64,000 bases of DNA, taken from Glycera tridactyla. Lineage: Eukaryota. The notes under the pieces are model-generated. The model did not search any database. It worked only from the letters and a program-made list of their open reading frames with translations, and was not told where the DNA came from. Location of the stretch: NCBI GenBank assembly GCA_965644265.1, contig OZ286464.1:46376001-46440000 (forward strand), written 5' to 3'. Below, one piece after another: positions 17,301 to 54,959 of this stretch. The position numbers and the translations under genes were made by a program. How positions within the stretch are numbered: position 1 is the stretch's first letter; the number at the start of each line of letters is the position of its first letter.

Positions 17301-20300
17301 ATATCGTGAAATGTGGTATGTCGAGTGCTCGTGATGACAAAACCGAAGAAGCAACATGAGGGTTCGTGTCAGTATCAGCCTGAGTGGGAGCAGGCCCCAT
17401 GTTCAAGGACTGGATTGCAAGATGCACTTGATGCAATGTGTCTTTTTATATTGCCAATATGGGGACATATGCTGCCCTGTCCCATGTGGAGGGCAAGAAG
17501 CATCAGAAGAATCGGGCACTTCAAGCACCATGCAACTCATTGACAGCTTTTGAGATCTCTGTCAAAAATAACACCACTGTAGTCCCAGAAAGTTCAACAG
17601 AAGGCGGTCCTGACATCCCTTTGCTCCCACCACTAACTGCTGCAACAACCAATCAAGTGATGGATTTCGGTGCAAAAGTGCGATGGGTTCTTTGACTGAT
17701 CGTAAATCATCAATTGTATAATTCTTCATCTGATGCCGTGGAAGATATGTTCCCAGATGATGTTATTGCCAAGAAGTTCAAGTGTGGTGAAAGGAAACGA
17801 GCTCACCTTGCAGTGTTTGGCATTGCAGAATATCTCCTGTCTCTGCATAAAATTTGATCAATTGCTATGATGTTCGAAGAAAGCCTTAACGAAAAACTAC
17901 AACAAGAGCAGATGGATATCCATGTGCAATTCTGGAACCAAGAGTTGAACCAAGTCGTTTCATGCTACTTCGGTAGCCAACAAGTTGGTGAGTGTTTAGT
18001 TTTCCTCCCCCTTCCATTCCCAGAGTCACAAACGTCAACAGAACTCTACCTGTCTCATGACATGCATGTTATAGCCCATCGATAAAATATCAGATTTGGA
18101 GTTCTCAGCGGATAGAACATCATACATACCTAGTATTTACAATCGGTCAATCAAACTATGGCACATATGAAGCTGGGAAAAATAGCCTCCATGTTTCATT
18201 TGAGGAGAAATTCATCTTGCAGAATTGAATAAAACCCATAATATTCATGAATGTCATCAATGAGTGATAGTGATGACAGGTTAGTGGTTGGTTTCTCCTG
18301 TGCTGGTGCAAAAATCTTCATATTTTCAGTACTTATAGCATCTATCCTCCTTTTGTTTCAGGCCATGGAACTGCTGAGATGCTTGTGGACCACTTTGTGG
18401 AAGGGGTATTGGAATCAGGGATGAAAGTGGAAGACCTTATTCTAATTGGGATGGATGGTCCAAACGTCAATTGGAAATTGCATGATGATCACGACACCTG
18501 GCTGCTGAACATTGGATCATAATGGTCCACATGTCGTGCATAATAGTATCAAAGCTGGGATAAACATAACTGGATGGGATCTGTGTAGTTTGCTCGGTGC
18601 TCTCTACTACCTACTGAAGAATTCACCTGCAAGAAGATACGACTTCATGAAATTGAGTGTGGCTACCATCATTCCTTCCCAAGTTTGTGAACCAACGCTG
18701 GCTTGAAAATGTTCCAGTGGTGCAACGGGCAATTCACATTAGGGATGGGGTGGAGTTGTATGTGAAAGAGGTCAATTTAACCAAGCTTTCAGATCCCAAA
18801 AATAAATCATTCGCACTCATTCGCCAGGCGGGACAGTTCAAGATGGATGCAAACAATTGCATGATTAAGATCGATGAAAGAATGATGGCCACGTGTCCAG
18901 TCGCCTTCTCTCTTGCCTGATATCTTGCATGTCTCGAACAAGTAAGGATGGCCAACCAGCCTGGTAGCTGCGCAACGAGATTATGGAAGTTGCCGATGAT
19001 GCTTGTCCGTGCCGAGAGGGTGAAGGAGGATGAGCCTGACAACTTGATGCAGCAGTACAGCATCATCCTTGACTGCATTCCTATGTTTGGCCTAGAGAAA
19101 TTTGAGAAGTTTGATCCCTCTGCTGACAGGATAGCTGTATATTTGCAGGATTCATGTCTAGTGACAAGTATGACAAACATTATACTGTGACAAATTTGTT
19201 GTTCTGTCACATGGGTTCAGTGTGAATAAGGAAGTCATTGTGGAAAACATGAGTATTTCAAGTATTTCGGAGAAAACCCTTGGGCTAATTATACATTATG
19301 AATAGTAGCGTGTCATCTGTGATGATGTGAAGAGTGTTTGGAAGTGATGAAGGTAGATTTAACCCAGCCTCTGATGAAATCTGCTAGATCATCCAATTTG
19401 AGGTGTAATAATTATCCTGAGCTTGAACATGAGGAAAAAGAGGACTGAGGTGCAGAACAACAAAAAGAAGTGGCTGGTAGTATTTTCAACAGTAAATGAC
19501 CTCTATGAAGACCACCTCCCTACATAGGCCACTTTTTTATGCGACTGAGGGCGGTCTTTATAGAGAGGTTTGACTGTATAGTTTTTGTTCCAGCAAGGTG
19601 ATAATAGTGCAATCAGATCCAGTGATTTCCCTGAAGTTGGTTCCGTTGAATAATAGAAATCCAGTATCAATGAGGTTCGATTGGGTAGTGATTTTGTAAA
19701 TCCATATATTTTACCAGTCTGTAGGGGATTTTGATGAATCTTTTGATCCAGTGTCAACTACCATGATCTTTTTCATGCAGAGTCATACATCCAGTGAGCT
19801 GTGATTCTAGTGTGGATGATGTCTCATGATATTTCGAATATCAAATTGTAAACAGAGTTTGTGAATTTCTAGTCTGATATGATAATATGTCTCCAGCCTG
19901 CTGTGACGTGAACCATGATGTTTCTGACATGTTAGATATTTTAGTTCTCAATTTGTGTGATTTCCTGGACTGATATGATGTTTGTCCAGGGAGTGATGAT
20001 CCAAATCATCATCACAGTGTACATGTATATTTTCTAGTCTACTATGATTATGTGTCTCTAGTGCAATATGTTGTGTGATTCAATTGTAGCCAAAGAAAGG
20101 TGCTATTTTTTATCAATAAAAGTGTTTGTATAACTTGATACGGGTTCTGTTCTGAAATGTTTTGGGGATGTTCTGGAAATTATCTGGATAAAGTCTGGGA
20201 AAATCTGTTCAGGTGACTATGAACCATGTCACACACCTGATGGATATTTGATCGAAAACAGATCTGTAGAATATGATAGTCAGTAGTAGTCCTTTGCAGA

Positions 20301-23300
20301 ATATGATGGGTGGGAGTAATCCTTTGTAGAATATGATAGCCAGAGGTGATCTTTTGTAGAACATGATTGCTGGAAGTAATCCTTTGTAGAATATGATAGG
20401 TGGAAATAATCCTTTGTAGAATATGATAGGTTGGAGTAATCCTTACTAGAATATGATAGCCAGGAGTAGTCCTTTGTAGAATATGATAGCCAAAAGTAAT
20501 CCTTTGTAGAATATGATAGCCAAAAGTAATCCTATGTAGAATATGATAGATGGGAGTAATCCTTTGTAGAGTATGATAGGTGGGAGTAATCCTTTGTGGA
20601 ATATGATATCTGGAAGTAATCCTTTGTAGAATATGATAGCCAGAAGTAATCCTTTGTAGAATATGATAGCTGGAAGTAATCCTTTGTAGAATGTGATAGC
20701 TGGAAGTAATCCTCTGTAGAATATGATAGCCGAAAGTAATCCTTTGTAGAATATGATGGCCAGGAGTAATCCTTTGTAGAATATGATAGGTGGAAATAAT
20801 CCTTTGTAGAATATGATAGGTTGGAGTAATCCTTACTAGAATATGATAGCCAGGAGTAATCCTTTGTAGAATATGATAGCCAGAAGTAATCCTTTGTTGA
20901 ATATTAAAACCCAAAGTAATCCTTTGTAGACTTTGATAGCCAAAAGTAATCCTTTGTAGAATCTGATAGCCAAAAGTAATATGATAGGTGGAAGTAATCC
21001 TGTGTAGAATATGATAGCCAGGGGTGATCCTTTGTAGAATATGATAGCCAGGAGTAATCCTTTGTAGAATATTATGGCCATTAATAATCCTTTGTAGAAT
21101 ATGTTATGTGGAAGTGATTCTTCGTAGAATATGACAGCTGGAAGTGATCCTTTGTAGAATATGATGACCAGCAGTAATCCTTTGTAGAATATGATAGGTG
21201 GGAGTAATTCTTTGTAGAATATGATGGCCAGGAGCAGTCCTTTCAAGATTGACTATGTGAAAGTTATTTTTGTCTGACATAAATTGCACACCGATCCATT
21301 GAAACAACCAGTAGTGACTCACACCAGGGCTACAGGTGCAAATGACATCACAAATATTATCCATAGTTTCCAACTCTCCATAGTAACATTGAATCGGCTT
21401 CGGATATGGAATGTAATATAGGAGCGCTCACCTATATGCATTTGTGTCGTAGGCCTAGTCATATGCTTTGAGAGAATGTTGTATTCAATCTGCAGGAGAT
21501 CTGTATTGAGCCTCTGATCAGCCCACAATAGAAGTGTTTTGTAAGTAGCCCAAGGGCATGGCATGATAAATACTGCTCAGCATACATAAGCATCTACTAT
21601 AATGCATTTTCTACAGCCTTTTACATGTAATATCAACTCCCTTTCACTCTGTTGGTTAGGATTTATGTGCATAGAAATAAGGCAGAATGTCTCACATTCG
21701 CTATTTTATCCATGCTTCATCTATACGCTGTGGAACAGCTCTTGAATAGTCCCATCCTCACATGACTCCTTTGTGGATGGCATTCTGTACCAAATACTTT
21801 GGTTTGTGGTCATTTATGATTCATACCTCCCGACAAATCTTTGTGTGTTAGGTTGGCTTTCTTGAGCAGTTCCACTGTGAACCATTATCCTAATGTGTGG
21901 CTTTGAAATTCATGGAGAATTGCAGTTAGGTTTTCAAGTGAATATATATCACTATTCATGGTGTAGAATTAAACAGGCCTGAAAAGATAAGTTTTTATTA
22001 GTCTAATGCTTCTTAGGTGCTATTTGATAAGATTCCCATATAACAAAAGATGCTTCTTCCATAATTTACTTCTTATGTCCATTCTCTGAGAGACCCACCA
22101 TGAGTATGTGCCCAGGCTTCACACAGACTCTGGAAATGTTCTTGAAATTTCTGCACATGCAGGAAATGTTCTGGAAATTATACTTTTCACACAGGCGTTC
22201 TGAAACATAGTGGAATGTTGGGATTTGTGATCTGGAGATCACACCCAAGTTGTGGAAATCAGCAGAAACCAGTCGATTTCACTGATTGACATGAACAAAC
22301 CTCATTCAGGCATTATTCGTTCTGATAGATTACGAAATGACCAGAAAGATATGCAGATAAGCCCCATGATAGAGAATGTCAGAAAACTATAAGTAGTTCA
22401 GAAATACAGTGAAACCTGCGACGAAAGACCACCTCCGACGGGATGGCGCTTCTCAAGGGCAGCTTTTTTATTTGACATAGTCAAATATACCTCTGACGAG
22501 AGACCACCTCCTTCGAGAGACCGCTTTAGGGCGGTCTCTCATTGCAGGTTTCACTGTAGTGCCTCTTGTCACTTGTCTTGTTGCTGGCATTAAAACAGGT
22601 TTCGCACAGACTCTACAAATGTTGTGGAAACCACTACCTATACTGGAAATGTTCTGAAAATCATGTTCTGCACTCTAGTGTTCTGGAAAAATACTGGATT
22701 TTTTTTTATTTTGTTCTGGTAATCTCTTCCATTTTCTGGAAATCAGCAAAAACCTGTTGATTTCACTTGTTTTTGCTGGAGAATGATTCACACTTTAGGC
22801 GGTGATAGCAGAGGGACCACCAAGATGTGCAAATGAATGTAAAAAAAAATCATGATTAGTTGAAACATACTGCCTCTAGTCACTGGTGCTGCACATATAA
22901 ATATTAAGAATCACAAATGTTCCTGCAGCATTCAATTAAAATACCATGATCGAATTATTGACTATTTGTGTCTTGTATTTTTGAAATTCTTTCGGGTGTA
23001 CTGGAAATGTTCTGGAAAAACTCTGGATTTTTTTTCTTAAGAAGGCTGTATGAATGATTATAAAAAGAAATCGCCATTATTGATGCAAAATTCATTTATA
23101 AGACCATGGGTAAATGCTATGTGTTCCGGAAATTTTCTGGGGTGAACTGGAAATGTTCCGGAAAAACTGTGTTTGTTCATCGGAAGTCTATGTGAACCAT
23201 GGTGCCACAGTGCCCACACCTGCTTTTCAATTGATACCCTTTCATGGAATGTTAAAACAGGATGGAGCATGAGAATGAAATTCATTCTACCTTTCACTTG

Positions 23301-26300
23301 TACATTTCTTTTTATCTTTCTCCGGTTTGGGCTTGAGATTCTGTTGTGTGCAATTTCATCATGAAAAGCCATAGAATATTCCTTCACATATGATGTCATG
23401 AGGTGATATCTTGTCTGTTATGAAGTGAACTGCTCCATTACATTATTTGCCATACAGTCATTGTTAAGTACATGAACAAGTTGAATGCATGTTCAATTTG
23501 TACAAGATTGAGTTGGATCAATAGCATGAGTCCATTATGGTTGTAGTTCGATATTCGATATTGTGATTGCATTTTCACATGTGATCTCATAGTACGGAGG
23601 ATCATATTGACTCTGTTTATGATGCAGTACGTTTTTATTTGCTAGATTGGTCGTTTGGAGTCATCAGCTCAGCAGATGCAGATGAATATGGCGGCTGATA
23701 CCCAACGGGCTCAGACAGAATTGGTCAAGGCTGAGGAACAGACTAAACTGGTTGAGGTAGAACTCACTGAGTCAAATAGAAAATGTGAGAGCCTCCAGCA
23801 GACTCTCTCTGGCAAAGAGGAACTAATTGGAAAAAATGAGGCTGAACTACGGGGAGCTAAAGACACCATCAATCTGAAAATTGAGGAGGTAAGCGAACAA
23901 TTTTCAGGTGATCCGTTCTAGTTGTTGATTTCAGTTGCTTGACTTGTGTAGGGGCAATCGATTCGCCGGTACACCGATGTTCCTGTGTGCTTTATAAATC
24001 AATTCAAACTACAAAGTGACTATGATCCAAATTTACTGCCTTGATCATGAAATCAGCGCATGCGCATCAACACAGAATTTGGTTATCTTGCTGTCATGTG
24101 ACATCACACCACCTCTACATTCCCCTCCACACAACCTGTCCTGTACAGCTATGATCTTTTTCACAAAGAGCCTTCACATGTCTCATACCAACTATAGTTT
24201 CTCCTCCCATCTCAAAAAAACCATGGATCAGTGTTGATGTCTTAGAATACATGATACAATATGCCTGGTCGAAAAATTGTCTATCAAATAACAGTGTGTT
24301 GTTGCTTTCAACGTCAGAGGATGTTGATATGAACTTCTATTTGTTCTATCATTATATGATGTCTCATAATGGGTCCTCATTTTGTTTCGAATTTATTTTC
24401 ACAGATTGAGCGTCTTGAAGGTGTTGTACGTGAACTTCGTATGAATGTATCCAATCTTGAACGTGATCATCGCCAGGCAGAGAATCAGGTAGGTTCACAG
24501 TGTCCTTCCATTCAGATTACCCGGTACCCTTGATAGATTAGCATTTTAGCTATAGTTAATCCGTGAGGTCAAATGCTAAAGAAGAAAAAAATCATCTGCC
24601 TGAATGATTTGCTAAAACAAAATGTTCATTCCTAGTCGGACAAAGGTGGTGATGCTTTATTGTAGCTGAACATTTTCCTAATTTCATTGGTTTTGATGAA
24701 AATTTGCAATAGGAGAATAATAAATAAGAATGCCATCAATTTTCTTACTGCTGAACTGATTCAATGAAATGCTTTCTAGTTGTCAACAAATTACTTTCTG
24801 AATTGCAAAAATTATTTCCATTTTGCTAAAATCATTCGCTAAAAGATATCTCATCCTAGAGGAATCCCAGAATATTAAAGTTTGGTTCATCACTGTATTG
24901 AATCAGTTATGGAGGTCAGAAAGAGCATGAACTGCACTCCTCTTTCATCCACTCGAAAATTCATTAGTGCCAAGACACCCTCATATAAATGTGTTGAGGT
25001 TGAAATTCGGGCAATTGTGGTTGATTTGATTATTTTTGGATCTCTGTTTTTGAATGTCCACCTGTATTGGTCGTTTTCAGATTGGAGATTTACAAACGGA
25101 AGTAGAACATCACAAATGTCAGCTAACAGAGGCAAGAGGAAATTACAAGGAATGTGCACAGGAGGTAAGCATGAATATTTCTGAACTTGCTATGTCAGAG
25201 ATCTTTCAATAGGCAACATTATGTCAATGGAGAACAGAATATGAGAAACAAATCACAACCATCACAATTTAAGAGCAAAGATTACTATCACTAGGCCAAC
25301 AATAGAACATATCACATCCATGTATAATGTGATTCCCGAAAGTTCATACTTTTCTTATTGATACATGGGTGATACTACCAATCTACCAACTCTAACTCTA
25401 CAAAAATATGTCATTTTTACCTCGTCTCAAAGAAGTTGAGGGGGGTATTGCGGTCACTCCGGCGTCGGCGTCAGCGTCGGCGTCCTCATCTGCGTTAAGG
25501 TCAGCGTTAAGGTCATGTTGAAGTCCCTTTGCTAAGCAACTAGAGGGCCTAGCTCCATATAATTGAGCACACATATACTTCAGTACATTTGCTATTGAAT
25601 CCAGCCATCATCAAGGTGCCATCTCAATGTTCTGCTTGACTAATTTTGGGTTGAAACTTGTGTTTTCTGAAGTGATGGGACTCTGTCATTGGGGGCAATG
25701 TTGAAGTCATGTTGAAGTCACATTGCTCAGCAACTAGAGTGCCCAGCTTCATGGAATTTGGCATGCATATACTTCAGTACATCTACTAATGAATCCGGCC
25801 ATCATCAAGGTAGCATCCCAGTGTTCTGCTTGATCAATTCTGGGATGAAAATTGGGTTTTTGGAAGTAATGGGACTTAGCCATCTATGAGCTATTTCTGA
25901 TGATCTGATTTATTCATGTTCAGTTTGCAGTTGATTCTCCACATGTGTCTTTATCCCCTGTGATTGTATATTGCCCATGGAAGACTGATATATGTGCGAG
26001 ATGGTGATTTTGGGGCAAAAAATCACTTTTTTGAAATGGATGAACTTGGTCATTTCTGGTTAGTTTTTCAGTACCCAGCCACCCCAAACTTGATACAGAG
26101 GGATCTCATAGCATTCCTTAATGAATGCGAGTCATGAATGGGGTCTCCCAAGAGGCCTGGTTCGTTTTGGGGTGAAAATTGGTTTTTCAGAAATGGATTT
26201 TTCTAAAGATGTTGGCCGTCCGTAGGCACACCATACTTGGCATAGATGCAGTTCATAGCATTCCCTAATGAATGCTAGCCATAGATGGGGTCCCCCAACA

Positions 26301-29300
26301 GGCCTGGTCGGTTATGGGGTGAAAATTGTTTTTTCAGAAATGGATTTTTCTAAAGAAGGTGGCTGTCCATAGACAGTCCAAATTTGGCATGGATGCAGTT
26401 CATAGCATTCCTTGATGAATGCTAGGCATAGATGGAGTCTCCTAATAGGCCTGGTTGGTTTTGGGCGGAAAATTGTTTTTTCAGAAATGGATTTTTCTGA
26501 AGAAGGTGGCTGTTCATAGCTACACCATACTTGGTACAGATGTACTTGATAGCATTCCCTAATGAATGTTTGCCGTAGATAGGGTCTCCCATTAGGCCTG
26601 GATGGTTTTGGGGAGAAAATTGGTTTTTCAGAAATGGATTTTCCTATAGATGTTGGCTGTCTGTAGCCTCAGCAAACTTAGCATGGAAGTAGTTCATATC
26701 ATTCCCTAATGAATGCTAGCCATAGATGGGGTCTCCTAACAGGCCTGGTTGGTTTTGGGGTGAAAATTGCTTTTTCAGAAATGGATTTTTCTAAAGAAGG
26801 TCGCTGGCCATAGCCACACCATACTTGGTACAGATGTACTTGAAAGCATTCCCTAATGAATGCTAGCCATAGATGGGGTCTCCCATCAGGCCTGGTGGGT
26901 TTTGGGGTGAAAATTGTTTTTTCAGAAATGGTTTTTTCTAAAGAAGGTGGCTGTCCATAGACAGTCCAAATTTGGCATGGATGCAGTTCATAGCATTCCT
27001 TGATGAATGCTAGCCATAGATGGAGTCTCCTGACAGGCCTGGTTGGTTTTGGGGTGGAAATTGCTTTTTCAGAAATGGATTTTTCTAAAGAAGGTCGCTG
27101 GCCATAGCCACACCATACTTGGTACAGATGTACTTGATAGCATTCCCTAATGAATGCTAGCCATAGATGGGGTCTCCCATTAGGCCTGGTTGGTTTTGGG
27201 GTGAAAATTGCTTTTTCAGAAATGGATTTTTCTAAAAGAAGTTGGCTGCCCATAGCCACACCATACTTGGTACAGATGTACTTGATAGCATTTCCTAATG
27301 AATGCTAGCCATAGATGGGGTCTCCCATTAGGCCTGGTTGCTTTTGGGGGTGAAAATTGCTTTTTCAGAAATGGATTTTCCTAAAGAAGTTGGCTGCCCA
27401 TAGCCACACCATACTTGGTACAGATGTACTTAATAGCATTCCCTAATGAATGCTGGCCATAGATGGGATCTCGACTGGTTGGTTTTGGGGTGAAAATTGT
27501 TTTTCAGAAATGGACTTTTCTAAAGATGTTGGCTGTCGTAGCCACTCCAAACTTTGTACAGATGAACTTTATATCATTCCCTAATGAATGCCAGCCAGGG
27601 ATCAGGGTTCCTGACAATGCTGATCGATTTTTGGGACAAAAGTGGATTTTCAGAAATGGATTTTTCCTAAAGATTGTTGCTGCCCCTTGCCACACACTAA
27701 ACTTGACACATATGCCTTTCATAGCATTCCTTCATAAATGCCTGCAATGGATGGGGACCGATGACAACCTTGCTTGATTTTGGGGACAAAAATGTAAATG
27801 TTAACCAGACGTGACTTCTCATGAGCATCAGCAGATGGATCCAACCTTCGTTTGAAAATTGATTTCCACAGCATGAGTTGGGTCATCTATGCGTTACATA
27901 TATTCGAGGCATCTGAGTTGGCTTCATTGAGACGAGGTCCGCCTTCAGTGAAGGCTATGTTTGTAGAGTTAAAGTTGGTAGGGGTGTCTGAACCATCAGC
28001 TACTTCCACTTGACAACCTTTCTGGTTCCCCATCATCTTGTGTTCAGGGTTTGTGAGAGTGTTGTCTGCAGGGGAGAGAACATCAAACTTTCATTAACCA
28101 GGAACACACGGCATACATAATCCTGTGGGTTGATACATGCCGTTAAGCCTCAAACAAACAAACAAAACACTCAGATAATTTGCATTGTTGCCTTTCTTAT
28201 TCATGAAAAAAAAGGGCATTTCTCCACATTCACTATTTTTCACATTCATTGTGAGTTGCTAAAGATTTCTTCATTTAATTTGTACATCACTATGCAGTGA
28301 TAACTTCTCAAAGCTGTACGATTTATTTCTTCTGAATGCATGTGTGTTGATCAATACTCATTTGTGATATTCCCAATGTTTTCACCCCTATCATGCATTA
28401 TGATCGCATTGTTTGCAGCTCGCTCATCATGAAGAGAAGGTTGTTCTCCTGGAACACAGCATTGCCAGCACCCAGGAGCAGCTGTCTGCACGAGTTGCAG
28501 AAGGCGTTCGTCTTGAACAAAACATCCGCCGTCTCACTACCGAGGTCAACACATTGACTGAACGATGTGGCTCAAATGATGAGGAAATTAGCCAACAGAG
28601 GTCACTGATTGACAAGTTACGGAAGGACGTACTTGCTGCGAAGGAGGAGACTCACGCTGCTATTCAGGAGGGTATGGCATACAAGCAGCAGGGATCTAAA
28701 TTCGCCGTCGAGCTCGAGGGAGCACGTGATCAGGAACGTATGCTCACCGAGCAAATTGAGCAACAGGACACCTTACTTGCACAACTCCAGCAGGAGTTGA
28801 AGGATGAACGCGCAAGGCAACAAGAAACCAGTGATGGTCTTACGCAGGCCAAGAAACTTGTGTCAGAACTTCAGGATGAGATTGACCGACTCCAACGTCA
28901 GCTCCGTGACTCTACAAATAAAGTAAGTACCGGTAGTTCTCGTCAACTTAATTTTATATATATATGCTGCCATTGCAGGGCAAGAAGTTTATGCTCTTGG
29001 CTTACAAGCCTAATCAGACAAATATGACCCCCCAATTTTCCATGATCAGTTAAAAATATTCTTGACTGGTTTATATGAATTGCCCCAGAAATGCATGTAG
29101 TTCATTTGCCAGTCCACAAATTTTGCCTGCATCAGCCGAGAGGGTAACTCTCCACATCATTATTGATTATCGGACATGAAAGTGGACCTAGATGCAGGCA
29201 GTTCAGGACTGAAATCCATTGGAATATCACACTACAGTCTTGAAAGATGTCAGTCCAACAGCATGATTGCACTCTTCTGGAATTGCATGTGGGCATTATT

Positions 29301-46317: not shown

Positions 46318-46325
46318 GCGATCTG
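46318..46325. repeat. Left target-site duplication GCGATCTG
   Basis: Identical to 54406-54413 and abuts the TIR. Confidence 0.9.
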
Positions 46326-46510
46326 GGGATAACTTCAGAACACGGTCCTTACGTTGAATACAACGAAGTGGCTGCAATAATGGCTGCCTACCCTAATAAG
46401 AACTGTGTTTCTAGATTACTATATTAATTTGTCTTCGCGTGAGGGGAAAATCACCCCGGGGAAGTCTGCAGCCATGTTTGCAGCCACTTCGGCAGCCACC
46501 TTCGAATTCA
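46326..46510 (+). repeat. Left terminal inverted repeat of the Merlin element (imperfect, ~185-200 bp)
   Basis: Aligns to the reverse complement of ~54205-54405, including a perfect 22-mer GGGGAAAATCACCCCGGGGAAG (46443-46464 vs 54255-54276). The inner boundary is approximate. Confidence 0.85.
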
Positions 46511-46689
46511 CGCTTGAAATGTTCATGAAATGTACCAATTTCATCCTGTACGATGTTCATATGACATCTGCACCAACTTTAAAACAAATAAAATGGAAGT
46601 TATAAAGTGTAACTATTGTTTGTTATTCTTACCTTTTGTTGTTTAAGTCTTTAACTTGTTTTATATCGTAAAATCCATCGAACAATTGT

Positions 46690-46865
46690 TCTCATGACAT
46701 CGCCCTGACCGCCATTTTGTTACGCGCAATGATATTTCTCGCGGAATCTCGTTGAACGTGAGTACGTTGCCGGGGGACTACTTTACCGCTTGATGTCGCT
46801 AGAATCGAATTTTGTGATCATTTTCGCGCTTCGAAGATTTCAAAAGTGAAACCAACACGGTACGT
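46690..46865 (+). promoter_or_regulatory. Putative cargo promoter/5' leader, CpG-rich, with a YY1-type motif
   Basis: CCGCCATTTT at 46709-46718, dense CpGs, and a GTACGT donor-like site at 46860. Confidence 0.35.
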
Positions 46866-46868
46866 GTA

Positions 46869-47228
46869 ATGGCGCCTGATCGATATGCATTTGCTTGGTT
46901 GTTAATTCAGGATTTGATAGGGAATGCAAGTAAATGGCCTTTGCACATTAGAAGATGTTTCTGGACAAAAAACATAAAGTATGCTGATCGAATGATTGTC
47001 GCTGCGTTCGTATGGACTAATGGACTAGATCCTGAGATATTTATGGACTGGGTCCATTTGTATGGGATGGCACGTGATGAGGCTGCAAAGAAGCATTTAT
47101 GGAGCCTATTCAATGATTTCGCAAAGGGAAATCACTACAATCTGTACGCTTACAACGTCACCAAGAACAATTACGAATATTTAGATGGCAGAAAAAGATA
47201 CTATGAACACAAATCAACAAGAAAATAG
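46869..47228 (+). CDS. Cargo ORF A, 119 aa, unknown helical protein (possible primase large-subunit CTD/PriX-like fold)
   Basis: ATG-initiated, globular aromatic-rich composition, downstream of a CpG-rich promoter-like region inside the TIRs. The fold resemblance is by eye only. Confidence 0.6.
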   Translation: MAPDRYAFAWLLIQDLIGNASKWPLHIRRCFWTKNIKYADRMIVAAFVWTNGLDPEIFMDWVHLYGMARDEAAKKHLWSLFNDFAKGNHYNLYAYNVTKNNYEYLDGRKRYYEHKSTRK

Positions 47229-47291
47229 TAAGTTTATTTATCGTAATTGATGAACCATTTGCTGTAATATACATTTTTTTTTCAGGTGAAA

Positions 47292-48035
47292 ATGACATAT
47301 CTTGGGTACAAAACTATATATGGGCTTCCCTACGTAAGGAACAAATTTCATCCAAGCGACCCAACTGCAAGAATATACTCTGCCAACCAAGAAGAAGACC
47401 TTATTTTCAAACCATGGCAGTTGTTCTTGGACTTGAGAGAGTGTTGTGCACGATATTCATGTGTGAGAAATCTGCAAGATTACCCAACAAGATTGTGTAA
47501 TATGGATCTTGTAGAACTTTGTCAACTGGAATTTGAAACAGAAAAACCGAATGGGTTCTGCAATGGATGTTCCCTGATGCAACCTTCGTTTGATTCCTAT
47601 ATGTATGCAAACATAACTATGATCAACAGATTGAAAAACTGGATGAGAACCACACAAACATGGCATGAAATTTCAACAGAAAGTGAATTATCGTTGGTTT
47701 TTGTCAGTATTCAAGAGAGGAAACTGCAGAGGTATGGTGGCGATAACTTAAGGAGGAACGTGGTAAATACTCCGGTGGTGCATCCATACCATAACTGCAT
47801 GAGAATAGGTCATCAGACATTCAGGTTTAAGCCAAGGAATTGTGATTTGAAGTTTCTTCTAACGCAAATAATTGGTGATAAAGCATGCATCAAACAGTTG
47901 GATGAGGACATAATGTTTAAAGGACCATTTCATTGTCGTTGTGCTGATGATTTCGTTTCTCCTGATTCATACTTTGGACTCAAAATCAACAATCAAAATG
48001 ATCTTCCAGACATTCTCCCCCCCCCCCTTCCCTAA
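47292..48035 (+). CDS. Cargo ORF B, 247 aa, Cys-rich unknown protein
   Basis: 744-nt open frame preceded by a T8CAG acceptor at 47285; Cys clusters CCARYSC, FCNGC, HCRC. Confidence 0.55.
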   Translation: MTYLGYKTIYGLPYVRNKFHPSDPTARIYSANQEEDLIFKPWQLFLDLRECCARYSCVRNLQDYPTRLCNMDLVELCQLEFETEKPNGFCNGCSLMQPSFDSYMYANITMINRLKNWMRTTQTWHEISTESELSLVFVSIQERKLQRYGGDNLRRNVVNTPVVHPYHNCMRIGHQTFRFKPRNCDLKFLLTQIIGDKACIKQLDEDIMFKGPFHCRCADDFVSPDSYFGLKINNQNDLPDILPPPLP

Positions 48036-48711
48036 TTTACGTGAACAAATTGGGAAAGTTCCTGTGCACAGTGTAAATGTTCAAGAAATGCCAACGTCAA
48101 CTGTTGTTCGATCACAAATACATCCTTCTCCATTATGTGCTCCATCTGGATTTCTTTCTACCAACAATTTGTCAATGGATCTTCCCGACTTGAAATGTTC
48201 ATTGTCACCAACATCATCACCAATACCATCACCATATGCTGCAACAACAACAACTGAAAATAAACAAACAACACCAACATTTACTATTAAATGCACAGAC
48301 ATGTCGTCAACACTGCTAAGTGGACATTTTCCATCTCAACCAGAACAATCATTTGAAATTCCAAATATGATGTCTTCGCCAGTGGCTCAAAGTACACCAA
48401 AAGAAAGAGGAGGTTATGATTCACCAATTCCAGCAAGTGGTGTTGTAGTTGAAAAAATGTCATCATCATCATCTTCAAATTTATCTCTACTTGATTCATC
48501 ATTCTACAACGAGTACATGTTCAACAGTATCCAGAATGTTGACAATCACTCCACAAGCTACTCCTTCAATATGAGCAACAGCCAGACATCAAATATTTCA
48601 GATTCATCATGCTTCATAACATCTGTGGTTGGTTTACGTAAAAGGAAGACGCGTACATGGGATGATGATGTTATTGTTTTACCTAACTCCGAAACAGATG
48701 ATACAGTTTGA
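47941..48711 (+). CDS. Cargo ORF C, S/T/P-rich low-complexity region with basic patch RKRKTR; probably the C-terminal half of ORF B
   Basis: 771-nt open frame in AT-rich DNA, overlapping the end of ORF B in the +1 frame across a C11 run (48017-48027). Confidence 0.5.
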   Translation: MLMISFLLIHTLDSKSTIKMIFQTFSPPPFPNLREQIGKVPVHSVNVQEMPTSTVVRSQIHPSPLCAPSGFLSTNNLSMDLPDLKCSLSPTSSPIPSPYAATTTTENKQTTPTFTIKCTDMSSTLLSGHFPSQPEQSFEIPNMMSSPVAQSTPKERGGYDSPIPASGVVVEKMSSSSSSNLSLLDSSFYNEYMFNSIQNVDNHSTSYSFNMSNSQTSNISDSSCFITSVVGLRKRKTRTWDDDVIVLPNSETDDTV

Positions 48712-49539
48712 ATGAGTAAGTTAATGACTGTAAAAAGATATTATGTTCATTTTGTTATCAGGGATATATGAATTTTAATATTTTATATTTTATGATGCAG
48801 ATAAAAACAGGGAATTCCATAAAAAAAAAAGTGCGCCTACGTCATCAAACACATGGGGCTTCCCCTTAAAAAAATGCGTCTACGTCATTATTTTCGATGA
48901 TTTCTTTGAACGATCGACCCGCCACTCTGTGTTGATATCGAGAACTTGTAGTTCCTTCATTTCCGCATAACGTGCTAGAAACGGAATATACGTGACTCTC
49001 TGCGTTTACAGGTGAAGCTAATAGTTCTCGCCAAATCCGATAGCTGCAAATGTGGCTATACATTAGCGCCTCTTGCGACAAATAGACTAAACTAATAATT
49101 CAGGATAATAACGTTAGGCTTATTTGCAGAATCGGTACACATAAAATATCACACACCTAGTGCTTTCATGAAGAACTAATAGTTTAATTTTCATCCGAAG
49201 GCCGCAAGTGTGTATAATCCGTATCACCTCTTGTGACAATGAGACTGAATTATTAGTACATAATATTAACGTTAGGATTTTTTAACTAAAATTACTCATA
49301 TATATGATCACGCACCTGGTGATTAAACTGGTAACCATGAATCAACATTTCCAAACATGATAATTTAGATAAAAATAATGGAGGTGAGCACAAAATGATC
49401 TAATATCGTTTATTATATCTTTGATATAAATTTAAACCAAATATACATCACAATGTGGACAATCACTTTATATTTTTTAATTACAAGATTAAATATGTGA
49501 ATTTTCAAGGACATTATTGTGAAGTTAAAGAATAATGTG

Positions 49540-50877
49540 GTCCTCACATCTACTCCTTTTTTTTTGAGGACCGTGTTATGCAGTTAATCCCACCAGCAAA
49601 ACACCAAAATGCGGTCCTCAGATTTACTCCTCTCCATAAATTACTCCTATCCGTGATCATTATTATATTGAATGATAAAAATAATTTTAACTTGTTTTTT
49701 TTTGTACAATTTCATGCAGTTACGAGATGATATTGAATAATAGGAGTGAATTGTTGTTGGTAAAAACATGATTTTTTGAGGACCGTGTTACGTAGTTAAT
49801 CCCACCGGTACCACATCAAAATGCGGTCCTCAGATTTACTACTCTCCATAAATTACTGTATGATATTGACGGAAAGGATCATAATTCAGGAGTAGCATTA
49901 TTGTATTGTACATGCAATTTTTAGATTAGGATATCATTGGATCATACTTGTTTTTTGCGGTCCTCAAATTGTTTTTTTTGAGGACCGTATTATGTTAACC
50001 CCACCAGAGCTACATCAAAAAGCGGTCCTCAAATTTACTTCTATCGGTTAATTGATTTTATCATATTGAAAATAGAAATGCGGTCCTCAATTTTTTTTTC
50101 TTGAGGACCGTATTATGCTGTTAACCCCACCAGGGGTACATCAAAATGCGGTCCTCAAATTTACTCCTATCCTTTAATTGATTTTATCATATCGATGGAT
50201 AGGAGTAGAGTAGGAGTAGGAAATTTTAAGAGTAGAACATTAATGGATCACACATGAAATTTTTAGGACCGTATTATGCTGTTAATCCCACCAGTGCTAC
50301 ATCAAAATACGGTCCTCAGATTTACTCCTATCCGTTAATTAATTTTATCATATTGACGGATTGGAGTAGAATAGGAGTAGGATATTTCAAGATTAGAACA
50401 TTAATGGATCACACATGAATTTTTTAGGACCGTATTATGCTGTTAATCCCACCAGTGCTACATCAAAATACGGTCTTCAAATTTATTCCTATCCGTTAAT
50501 TACTTTTATCATATTGACGGATAGGAGTATGAGTGAATTTACCCCCCCCCCCCCCCCCCCCAGTGCTACATCAAAATACGGTCCTCAAATTTACTCCTAT
50601 CCGTTAATTAATTTTATAGTATGAGTGAATTTACCCCCCCCCCCCCCCCCCCCCCCCACTAGTGCAAAATACGGTCTTCAAATTTACTCCTATCCGTAAA
50701 TTAATTCAATCATGATGACGGATAGGAGTATGAGTGAATTATTTGGTCTGATATGACATTAACAGATAGGAATAAAATTAAGAAGTATGATATTATTTGA
50801 TATTATATGTTTTTTTGCGGTCATTAAATTCTTTTTTTTCCGTTAATTAATTTTATCATATTGACGGATATGAGTGA
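49540..50877. repeat. Degenerate tandem array (~8-9 units) of double-hairpin motifs inside the Merlin element
   Basis: Recurrent TGAGGACCG...CGGTCCTCA and TACTCCTATCCGT...ACGGATAGGAGTA inverted pairs, around a shared core TTAATCCCACCAG..ACATCAAAA. Confidence 0.85.
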
Positions 50878-52314
50878 AACTTAGGAATTGAATATTACGA
50901 AAGTAATACTAAAGTTGTGAAATGTATTTAAGAGGTTATTTATTGGTTTCAGATGGACGAGAACAAGTTAGAAGCCCATGCGTGGTCGTACATTCGATGG
51001 AGGTGAGTGATATATATGACTTGAAAATCACTAAAAGCTATGGGGACTCCATCAGTGAAGTTGCGCCTACGTCATCATATGAGGAAATCCCTCGTCTACT
51101 GACGCGACACTCAGCGGCAAAGTAATAAATTTCTAGTTACTCACCTTCCGCTTGGGGGAAAATCCGATATCACTGTCACATCTCTGCGGTTCAGTTATGC
51201 ACTGGTGTTTCATCTTTTGTCCGCTAGGCGCTAACTCGAAGCGACGGTATCGCATCCCCGTGAGAAAATGAAGAACTTATGAATCCTGTGTCAACCGCTA
51301 GGCTTAACCTCGAGAATACATGTTCGCATCCCCGTGACGAACTGAAGAACTTTTAGTGAAGGCAGATGACGCTAGTCATTGACAATTTCTCTGAAGAAAA
51401 AATAGTTAAGACTATGATTACTATCTGCACCACACCTAAATGAATCAATAACGCAATCACAATCACTGCCACCAATAACACCATGAATACAACACACTAA
51501 TAAATTATACAGATGATTATATTTTCCTAAAATGACATAATATTTCTTTTATTTCAGAGTGATTTCCTGAAGTTTTTCCATCGTTTTCCGGACGTTTCAA
51601 GAGATGCAATATTTGTCTTCTGGATACAGTCTCTCAGCATCGATATGCGGAAGTATTTTGAACGGAACATTCGATCAACATTTATATTCAGCCATCAAGA
51701 AGCATCCAAGATTTCTCGTATCTGACTTACAATTTTCAGATGGAAAAAAATATGTGTTTCTGACGTTTTAAGTGATTCAATATTTGTCATATCAATACAA
51801 CCCCATGAAACAAATAGCAATGACAGTATTCAATGTGTTAATAGAAGCTGGAGTCACTTAAAAAGCCATATTAATGTCGAATATATGTGATTTTTTTTCA
51901 CCTGCATGACAATTTATATCAATGGCAATATCAACGGGTGTCGGGTTTATATTTTTTATATGGGATTTAACAAGATATTACTGTATGAAAATTACGGGAT
52001 TTTGGATTATGTTCCATAGTACTTTGTGGCAATGGATTCAATATTGGATGTCGTTTTTTTTTTCTCTATTTGGGCATTTAAAAATAGTTTGTTTTTTTTA
52101 AGGTGACATAAATTTGTGGCAATGCACCCAGTATCAGATGTCGTTTTTGTTAACTAGGATGTTAAATATTAAGACTGTGATAAATATGGTTTTTTTTCCT
52201 TGTACATAATATATTGTGGCAATGCACCTGTAATCGGGTGTCGGGTTTATTACTATTTTTTGGGTATTTCTTAACTTATGATTATGAGTGTGTGTGTGTG
52301 TGTGTATTTTTGGC

Positions 52315-52345
<31 letters not shown>

Positions 52346-52692
52346 AGATGTAATACTTCATATACTTTTATATATTGTTTATGTGAGAATAATATTTATT
52401 CAACAGGTTATTCACTGAATTAAATAATTCTTACCTGCAGTTATTCCGTGTTTCTTTATTACTGGTTGTGAACATCCTCAAAAGTATGCAATGCCATTTC
52501 AGATAGAACAATGGCGCACGAATAACTCTCCTGTTCCAGTGTATGAACGTAGTCCTCTAACATGTGTCCCTTCGTAACTGTATAATTTAAAGTATGATGC
52601 ATGCCATTTCAGTACGTAAATCCAACAATACATGTACGACGGTCAAATTATTTACAAGACATAACAAGTATGTACAACTCCGAAAAATGTTT

Positions 52693-53643
52693 TTAGAAGT
52701 GAATGTTAGGCATTTCTGCAAGCACCTCAGCTGGCAGATCCAAATTCCTCACATTGTAATACCTTCCCATCAGTTCCAACAGGTCCTCGAAGGTGTCTCT
52801 TCCCTTATTGTTCCATCTGTATTGTATCTCCTTCAAATATGGTCCAAGTCGATCTCTCCTAACACCATGCATTCTCTTGATTGCCAGTTTGGCATTCCCC
52901 CAGAACCCTTCCATAGACTGGGTATGTGCCTCTTCATCATCTGGATCAACATAGTCCTCAGCATGACAGACTGTTTTGTGAGTGTAATTGTTTCTATGTA
53001 CAGAAATTCCATTGTATGCCCTCCACTCATCCGAAACAATTGTGGTACCAGGTGCTATCATATCCTCAATGGCACCTATGAACACCTCAGCTGATCTGTT
53101 TTCGACTTGCCTCAAAAGGACCTTTTGAGTATCTCTTTGTATAGCTCCAAAGATCCATGGATCATTTGGTGGATGCCTTCCTCTGTGGTATTTTGCTCTG
53201 CCACGCCATAGACTTTCATCTATTTCAACAGTCGTGCCTGGCCCTCCAAGTCGATCTTCGTTTTCGTCGACATTTCGCCACATTAGATCGCGAAACAAAT
53301 TGTACCAATCGGTCACTGAGTGTTCGCACACAACCCCGTTGCACATTCGGGACACTACATTAATCGCAATGTTTCTAGCAAAGAAATATAGCAGCATTAT
53401 GAAGTAACGAAATTCCATTTTTTGTTTCGACAGAAACGATCCATCACGTATGGATTTCCGACCTTTACACAAAGGACATTTAAAAATGTATCCATCTATT
53501 TTCCTTTGTCTATACCTCTCCTGACGCATCCAAACTTCACAACCATTGCAGTATTGTCCTTTTTTTAGTATGTTCTTTTCACGTAGAAACAATATAGAAT
53601 CTTCTCTGGTTCTAGTCCTCTCAAAGACACTCCATATGTCCAT
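52693..53643 (-). CDS. Merlin/IS1595-family DDE transposase, uninterrupted ORF (316 aa from ATG 53643)
   Basis: N-terminal Zn-ribbon (CNGC...CPLC...RKSIRDGSF). Catalytic motifs GTTVEIDES, KYHRGR, WIFGAIQR, TTIVSDEWRAY, HKTVCH, HTQSMEGFW. No stops or frameshifts. Confidence 0.92.
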   Translation of the reverse strand: MDIWSVFERTRTREDSILFLREKNILKKGQYCNGCEVWMRQERYRQRKIDGYIFKCPLCKGRKSIRDGSFLSKQKMEFRYFIMLLYFFARNIAINVVSRMCNGVVCEHSVTDWYNLFRDLMWRNVDENEDRLGGPGTTVEIDESLWRGRAKYHRGRHPPNDPWIFGAIQRDTQKVLLRQVENRSAEVFIGAIEDMIAPGTTIVSDEWRAYNGISVHRNNYTHKTVCHAEDYVDPDDEEAHTQSMEGFWGNAKLAIKRMHGVRRDRLGPYLKEIQYRWNNKGRDTFEDLLELMGRYYNVRNLDLPAEVLAEMPNIHF

Positions 53644-53689
53644 CGTGGAGACCGCAGAATTCAAAACTGAAAGTGTTAACCGCGAAACG

Positions 53690-53743
53690 GTCACGTGATC
53701 ATCTTGCGCCTGGTCACGTGACAGCAACGACGGCGTTGATTGG
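53690..53743 (-). promoter_or_regulatory. Putative transposase promoter: two GTCACGTGA E-boxes and a CCAAT box
   Basis: GTCACGTGA at 53690-53698, GTCACGTGAC at 53713-53722, and ATTGG at 53739-53743 (CCAAT on the minus strand), 50-100 nt upstream of the ATG. Confidence 0.45.
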
Positions 53744-54204
53744 TCAAGAGTCTACCTCGCTAAATCACACTGAAGTCATTGAATGATTCGTTATGAAAAC
53801 AAAAACAAAGAATATATCTATAACTAGAAGTATTCAAGTATTTCTAGATATATATGACAAATAATAAAGCATAATAATACATTTTAAAATGTTAGTAACC
53901 AAGGAACTACTTCGTTCCGCGCAAGCTCACGCATTCTTCTTGAAGCCGATTCACTCACTTCCGCTTTGCACATTTCTTGTTTTGGAATGGATACGATAAC
54001 GCGACACACACAACTTTCAGGTAATTTATTAGAATTACACCTTACGTATAACATTTTTCGTTCCGATATTGTGTGCGCACACTAACACATAATACATAGT
54101 TTCAATTGTGCTCAATTATAGTTCACTGAAGCATGTAATCTTTATAAAAAAACATATTTTATGTGATAAACAAAGACCACCAATTCCATTTCGTCATGTG
54201 TTTG

Positions 54205-54405
54205 ACATGTATTCTAAAGTGGCTGCTGAAAAGGCTGCAATCATGGCTACAGACCTTCCCCGGGGTGATTTTCCCCTTACGCGAAGGGAAATTATCACAG
54301 TTAATTTATACATTCGTTCCTATTAGGTCAGGCAGCCACTTCTGAAGCCTTCTTTGAAGCCTTCTTCGAAGCTTTATATAAAGGACCTTGTTCTGAAGTT
54401 ACCCC
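54205..54405 (-). repeat. Right terminal inverted repeat of the Merlin element
   Basis: Reverse complement of the left TIR; the inner boundary is approximate. Confidence 0.85.
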
Positions 54406-54413
54406 GCGATCTG
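54406..54413. repeat. Right target-site duplication GCGATCTG
   Basis: Identical to 46318-46325 and abuts the TIR. Confidence 0.9.
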
Positions 54414-54959
54414 TGAGTGTATATGACCCTAAAATAGAAACCAGTTGGACGCTGCCTGGGGCTTTGACATCGAACAGACCTGCTGCTACTGCTGCTTATT
54501 AAAAAGCACTAGTGCGACCTATTTCAGACCATTTACATCACAAATTATGTCGTGGGAGAAAAACAAGAACCAGAGAGCGTCGGGGATCGCCACAATCTCC
54601 AACTCGGCCTGCGGCCTCGTGACGATCAACGCCGCTGGCGCCTGCCTCGTTGGAGATTGTGGCGATCCCCGACGCTCTTTGGTTCTTGTTATAATGTTGT
54701 GAGGATGTGATCTGTGTGTGCATTTAGAAGTCAAGCCAAAATCTGCCTCAAGTTGGCAGAGCACACATTTTTAAATCAATCTGGCAGCACAGACAACACC
54801 TCACAGCCATGTACAGTGACGCTTCCCATTGGCTGCTACGATCACCTGGGATGATAATGAATATACATGATACTTGCATTCAGATCTTCTGAGCATGATC
54901 AGACATGAAGAGTGATACTGATGATCCTTGACATGGGTATCTGTCATCTCAGATGAATT

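Follow-up and report, generated by a model that had tools for sequence, protein, structure and literature searches.

Merlin transposons, which are related to IS1016/IS1595, have been described as having terminal inverted repeats (TIRs) that start with GG, a target-site duplication (TSD) of 8-9 bp, and a transposase with the DDE_Tnp_IS1595 domain. The excerpts consulted also list internal tandem repeats, and report a single transposase gene with one antisense open reading frame (ORF) judged to be due to chance (PMC8101967). We have analyzed a Merlin element within 64,000 nucleotides of the Glycera tridactyla genome (contig OZ286464.1, positions 46,376,001 to 46,440,000; hereafter, the window) which, in contrast to the Merlins so described, carries two further conserved genes, designated ORF A and ORF B. 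Lineage-specific accessory genes of DNA metabolism are likewise found on a eukaryotic DDE transposon in the Kolobok lineages, whose accessory proteins, in the excerpts consulted, are nucleases, a helicase, or KolX, with none derived from a primase (PMC9587614). Predicted structure and profile comparisons indicate that the product of ORF A very probably descends from the fold family of the PriL C-terminal domain (CTD), PriX, and PriCT.

PriX of Sulfolobus is a stand-alone module devoid of an iron-sulfur (Fe-S) cluster, and in this respect is like ORF A, but it is a cellular primase subunit, whereas the element encodes no PriS or PriL partner (PMC5700102). The PriCT-1/2 and pRN1 helix-bundle domains of mobile-element primases have been described from prokaryotic elements as fusions with an AEP catalytic domain (PMC5862659), while ORF A is unfused and belongs to a DDE transposon of an animal. 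For a primase relative with an effect on transposition there is precedent in the IEE PrimPol of bacterial insertion sequence (IS) excision; IEE, however, is a bacterial catalytic PrimPol-helicase acting on copy-out IS families rather than a small gene within the element (10.1101/2023.06.07.543989). Our literature search, which had subscription journals and Repbase entries outside its scope, returned no report of Merlin elements carrying an accessory gene that resembles primase.

ORF A and the primase fold family

A preliminary description of the locus, made by eye, had proposed that ORF A is an intact cargo gene with motif spacing like that of the primase large subunit. Translation bore out the intact reading frame containing the quoted motif, and the spacing proved to be real, with R41 present in 94%, F47 in 99%, N51 in 100%, and G52 in 87% of the rows of a 127-row alignment of the family. 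The conserved core of the family comprises R41, F47, and N51 together with W23, P24, and W61, and position 38 is His in 62% of the rows and Tyr in the window copy. Seven related subfamilies begin with M-[AG]-P-D-[KR] at the same position and in the same frame, which supports the assigned ATG. A spliced N-terminus was rejected, as the CAG preceding codon 15 alternates with CAA (both encoding Gln) and a splice acceptor is therefore not conserved there. In all 28 pairwise comparisons of eight copies, pS was 0.64-0.88 and pN 0.13-0.29, with synonymous sites near saturation; the 11 pairs whose dS was unsaturated and could be computed gave dN/dS of 0.06-0.16. ORF A is a gene under selection.

The top structural match of the predicted ORF A fold was the PriL CTD (p58C; PF04104), and the N-terminal helical subdomain of that domain has the same [WF]P..[IM] and L.H..R.....F....G motifs in register. 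R41 aligns in sequence with the PriL Arg that lies eight residues before a conserved Lys and corresponds to yeast R355. Yeast R355, human R306, and PriX R72 superimpose and are required for initiation, and the R72A substitution abolishes ATP binding by PriX (PMC5700102). When the 127-row profile was compared with 30 archaeal PF04104 domains, the score was 22.7 (E 0.003; maximum of 40 shuffles, 19.5), and the profile from this genome scored 30.8 against a combined PriL profile with a probability of 54% (maximum of 60 shuffles, 23.3; reversed, 12.2). In an HMM rank test, 26 of the 30 archaeal PriL sequences scored above 0 bits, all across R41, compared to 1 of 30 reversed sequences, 3 of 201 decoys, and 8 of 109 PRIM2 domains. 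The closest predicted folds were uncharacterized ORFs of circular single-stranded DNA (ssDNA) viruses in BFVD, A0A345MQ97 and A0A345MY62, with TM scores of 0.64-0.66 over 95-127 columns at 18-21% identity; A0A345MQ97, from Circoviridae sp., ranked first (E 4e-4, TM 0.66) and was nearer than any cellular PriL.

ORF A differs from the PriL CTD in being a separate protein of 119 residues, below the Pfam cut-off, that lacks the N-terminal PriS-binding domain of PriL. The equivalent of Lys363, which is kept in primases and photolyases, is absent (position 49 is Y, F, or W), and the His401 position is apparently unconserved. The position of the FPPC cysteine is not Cys and the most frequent Cys column reaches only 32%, from which we infer that ORF A has no Fe-S cluster. 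ORF A is not a member of PriL proper but most likely belongs to its fold superfamily. The primase-like reading of the preliminary description is supported, with the register it had noted, by both the fold search and the profile tests.

Other searches returned little. Single-sequence searches of Pfam, PDB, and homologues with ORF A gave no match, PDB profile searches with the A1 and A2 profiles gave nothing below E 0.7, and a pre-filtered search of 41 archaeal genomes with the A1 profile found no PriL. No PriCT match was obtained at E <= 0.03 among 120 homologues. PHROGs gave weak single-member matches only, to 7 families among the 127 rows. The single-sequence model of ORF A was poor (pLDDT 57.7) and was not used; neither ORF A nor two homologues were present in the Atlas search, and a structure search with homologue P0096, from Mytilus coruscus, had no usable match owing to a poor model. 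A proposed identity with densovirus NS3 was without support from any search. As separate observations, the genome has a second, divergent exon matching PF04104 (G000:C40:63664560-63664760) besides the PRIM2 locus on C1, and two archaeal genomes that have a normal PriL also encode ORFs of 830-880 aa in which PF04104 matches internally (L141 in G001; G021:C1:944959). Among the relatives listed for the host PRIM2 exon, the nearest are mainly from molluscs, which would by itself suggest a molluscan host.

Linkage of ORF A to a Merlin transposase lineage

A search of the 2.04-Gb genome yielded 108 ORF A matches among 128 candidates, ranging in identity from 100% to approximately 34%, with five places, including the window, 100% identical. 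Forty matches were selected to span the subfamilies; ORF B lies behind ORF A in 38, a convergent transposase lies within 10 kb in 33, and both are found in 32. The converse search gave 342 candidate Merlin transposase matches; of the 150 with the highest scores, 46 have ORF A within 12 kb. In a quick IQ-TREE analysis of 57 transposases, all 31 linked to ORF A in this genome fell in one branch (SH-aLRT 99), which also takes in 3 of the 20 examined loci lacking ORF A, and two of these three keep ORF B. This grouping makes ORF A the marker of one Merlin lineage in this genome, and the gene is dispensable for other Merlins. One such family without ORF A includes a tandem array in which three Merlin transposase matches lie exactly 2,763 bp apart (G000:C7:110291469-110297387).

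Homologues are also numerous outside this genome, a profile search having yielded 805 clusters (clustered at 50% identity) at E <= 0.001 and 307 at 1e-10. Of the 150 best, 142 are no longer than 200 aa, and the median length is 129 aa. Among 43 metagenome loci with ORF A, many of which are short and some redundant, a Merlin transposase was found in 12 (5 divergent, 6 tandem, and 1 convergent), and ORF B was detectable in none. The transposase, rather than ORF B, is therefore the constant partner of ORF A. Four metagenome transposases grouped apart from the clade linked to ORF A in this genome (quick IQ-TREE); either ORF A moved between Merlin clades or it was lost repeatedly. The copies in the genome, their neighbors, and the homologue survey together establish ORF A as a conserved accessory gene of mobile elements and not captured host sequence, as the preliminary description had anticipated. 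Its label of cargo understates a gene that tracks a transposase lineage. No relative was seen when viral_contigs was scanned four times, with ORF A or with homologues of it, nor did the viral contig scan turn up any contig carrying ORF B, so that the link to viruses derives only from the predicted folds.

Architecture of the element and its second gene

The element has the features given for Merlin (PMC8101967), including GG-starting TIRs and a transposase with its DDE residues intact, and ORF A starts 543 bp in from the left end (Table 1). The left TIR is 74% identical to that of a sister copy over positions 46326-46510, and a perfect TSD of 8-9 bp flanks 5 of the 7 sister copies having both end motifs. 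A splice donor-like motif before ORF A and an intron-like spacer between ORF A and ORF B were seen; in the L055-type subfamily the spacer is missing, and ORF B begins immediately after the ORF A stop. The upstream donor-like motif could splice to position 47285, skipping ORF A, and the layout suggests that one promoter may yield ORF A from unspliced and ORF B from spliced transcripts. Four elements (L032-L035) are mosaic, being 97% identical to the window over ORF A and ORF B but 88% at the transposase end, and that end clusters with L040 and L041. Just beyond the right end of the element is an inverted repeat with 52-bp arms (54562-54690), and tandem arrays of 30 bp and 147 bp occur elsewhere in the window (20175-21362 and 26018-27795).

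Table 1. Positions of the Merlin element and its features, numbered from the first nucleotide of the window
Feature	Position	Strand	Remarks
Merlin element	46326-54405		
Left TSD, 8 bp	46318..46325	+	identical to 54406-54413
Left TIR, GG start, imperfect, ~200 bp	46326..46532	+	aligns to right end
Splice donor-like motif, directly 5' of ORF A start	46860..46865	+	GTA(C/A)GT upstream of ATG in 7/8 copies
ORF A	46869..47228	+	119 aa; helical domain predicted to resemble PriL-CTD/PriX, without Fe-S; R41 encoded at 46989
Intron-like spacer GTAAGT...TTTCAG, ORF A stop to ORF B start	47228..47285	+	by eye; most subfamilies examined
ORF B	47292..48711	+	Cys/His-rich domain of ~230 aa, then Ser/acid-rich tail; no family match
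Internal array of double-hairpin (dyad) units	49560..50720		6 units match core
Merlin/IS1595-type DDE transposase, 316 aa	52693..53643	-	PF12762, E 3.5e-25; D142/D205/E245 intact
Right TIR	54187..54405	-	aligns to left end
Right TSD, 8 bp	54406..54413	+	identical to left copy

ORF B of the window is split by a frameshift at a run of C near 48017-48027 into frames 47292-48035 and 47947-48711, and is a single ORF of 471 aa in sister copies L032, L033, and L035. Residues C51, C52, C57, C90, H164, H174, and C215 are invariant, and the tail is acidic with a basic cluster. A motif of the [ED]LPD[LI] type is found in 14 of 17 ORF B tails, and the hydrophobic-acidic ends resemble SUMO-interacting motifs. 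Family searches gave no match, including none to AEP, and a bromodomain match (E 0.054) was not accepted. Fusions were also observed, with ORF A and ORF B joined in one 552-aa frame (L045:2001-3659) and, by eye, an ORF A domain followed by a B-like stretch in the 890-aa protein P0128; protein P0019 has two ORF A domains.

The dyad arrays occur in 18 of 41 loci, confined to one clade (the window, L031-L045, L048, and L049). Three units were folded and formed tandem hairpins with z values of -5.5, -7.2, and -2.0, and no Rfam match was obtained at gathering score. The units could be protein-binding dyads or hairpins of ssDNA or RNA.

Possible roles of ORF A

Several results weigh against descent from the primase fold family. 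The structural scores, both Z and E, are each individually weak, and no Pfam match reached cut-off, PF04104 being matched in 1 of 120 homologues at 15.1 bits compared to the required 22.4. The comparison with 109 animal PRIM2 domains was not significant, the 127-row profile scoring 12.5 to a shuffle mean of 12.7, although the alignment nonetheless fell in the predicted register. A transposase control scored 21.0 on 15 columns in the profile comparison, and since archaeal PriL sequences are kin, the profile result counts as one result at the level of the family. The weak structural values and the PRIM2 test would accord with a resemblance to PriL that a small bundle of helices reached by convergence, in which case ORF A would be unrelated to primase and serve the transposase as a cofactor that binds DNA or protein, as would the first helix and the C-terminal beta-hairpin (residues 93-104), which are specific to the ORF A family. 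Such convergence is nevertheless quite improbable, given that structure and sequence profile, as independent methods, agree on family and register, and that reversed, shuffled, and decoy controls were negative.

ORF A is an accessory gene of a Merlin lineage, and we lean, by a little, toward its product being a stand-alone, Fe-S-free relative of the primase CTD that would use R41 to hold either a nucleic-acid end bearing a phosphate or a primer-template junction, and in so doing would link transposition with DNA synthesis by the host. Non-catalytic binding of nucleoside triphosphates or of ssDNA/dsDNA junctions, by analogy with PriX, is reasonably probable; that it also steers transposition, in place or in time, toward replication forks or repair gaps, which would raise copy number, we propose only tentatively. 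In an alternative we consider unlikely, ORF A would act like PriX to give host primase or another polymerase an initiation site in trans, so that the element primes a replicative, copy-out-like step. The shared PriX fold family and R41 register, the stand-alone and Fe-S-less nature of PriX itself (PMC5700102), and the internal hairpin arrays of one clade fit such priming, as do the nearest predicted folds, which are small ORFs of viruses that need ssDNA priming. A junction sensor tying transposition to forks or repair gaps is favored instead because no primase catalytic domain was found in the element and host primase already has its own CTD; moreover, fewer than half of the loci have hairpin arrays, and the copies have ordinary TIRs and TSDs. 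It is also doubtful that ORF A is a virus-derived passenger acting with ORF B on the host, for example as a primase-CTD decoy disturbing S phase or the sensing of DNA ends, without a direct part in the chemistry of transposition. The viral nearest fold would agree with a passenger, as would the layout of ORF A and ORF B as one transcription unit, the charged tail of ORF B, and the association of ORF A with no fewer than two clades of transposase, in three orientations, but a transposase was found in 12 of the 43 metagenome loci and ORF B in none, and the viral_contigs scans produced no relative of ORF A.

A wider reading, speculative and rather unlikely, is that a stand-alone PriX-like protein, common to an animal Merlin lineage and some of the circular ssDNA viruses, docks onto the host primase or the primer junction, so that a nominally cut-and-paste transposon primes or rides replication to copy itself. 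The primase-like reading of ORF A lends itself to direct testing, since the protein has only 119 aa and one key residue (R41) and young copies keep their genes intact. If that reading is true, the 805 clusters would constitute a large unannotated family of minimal primase-CTD-like proteins, DNA priming or the recognition of forks would be linked to a eukaryotic cut-and-paste transposon, and gene sharing between Merlin transposons and ssDNA viruses would be suggested.
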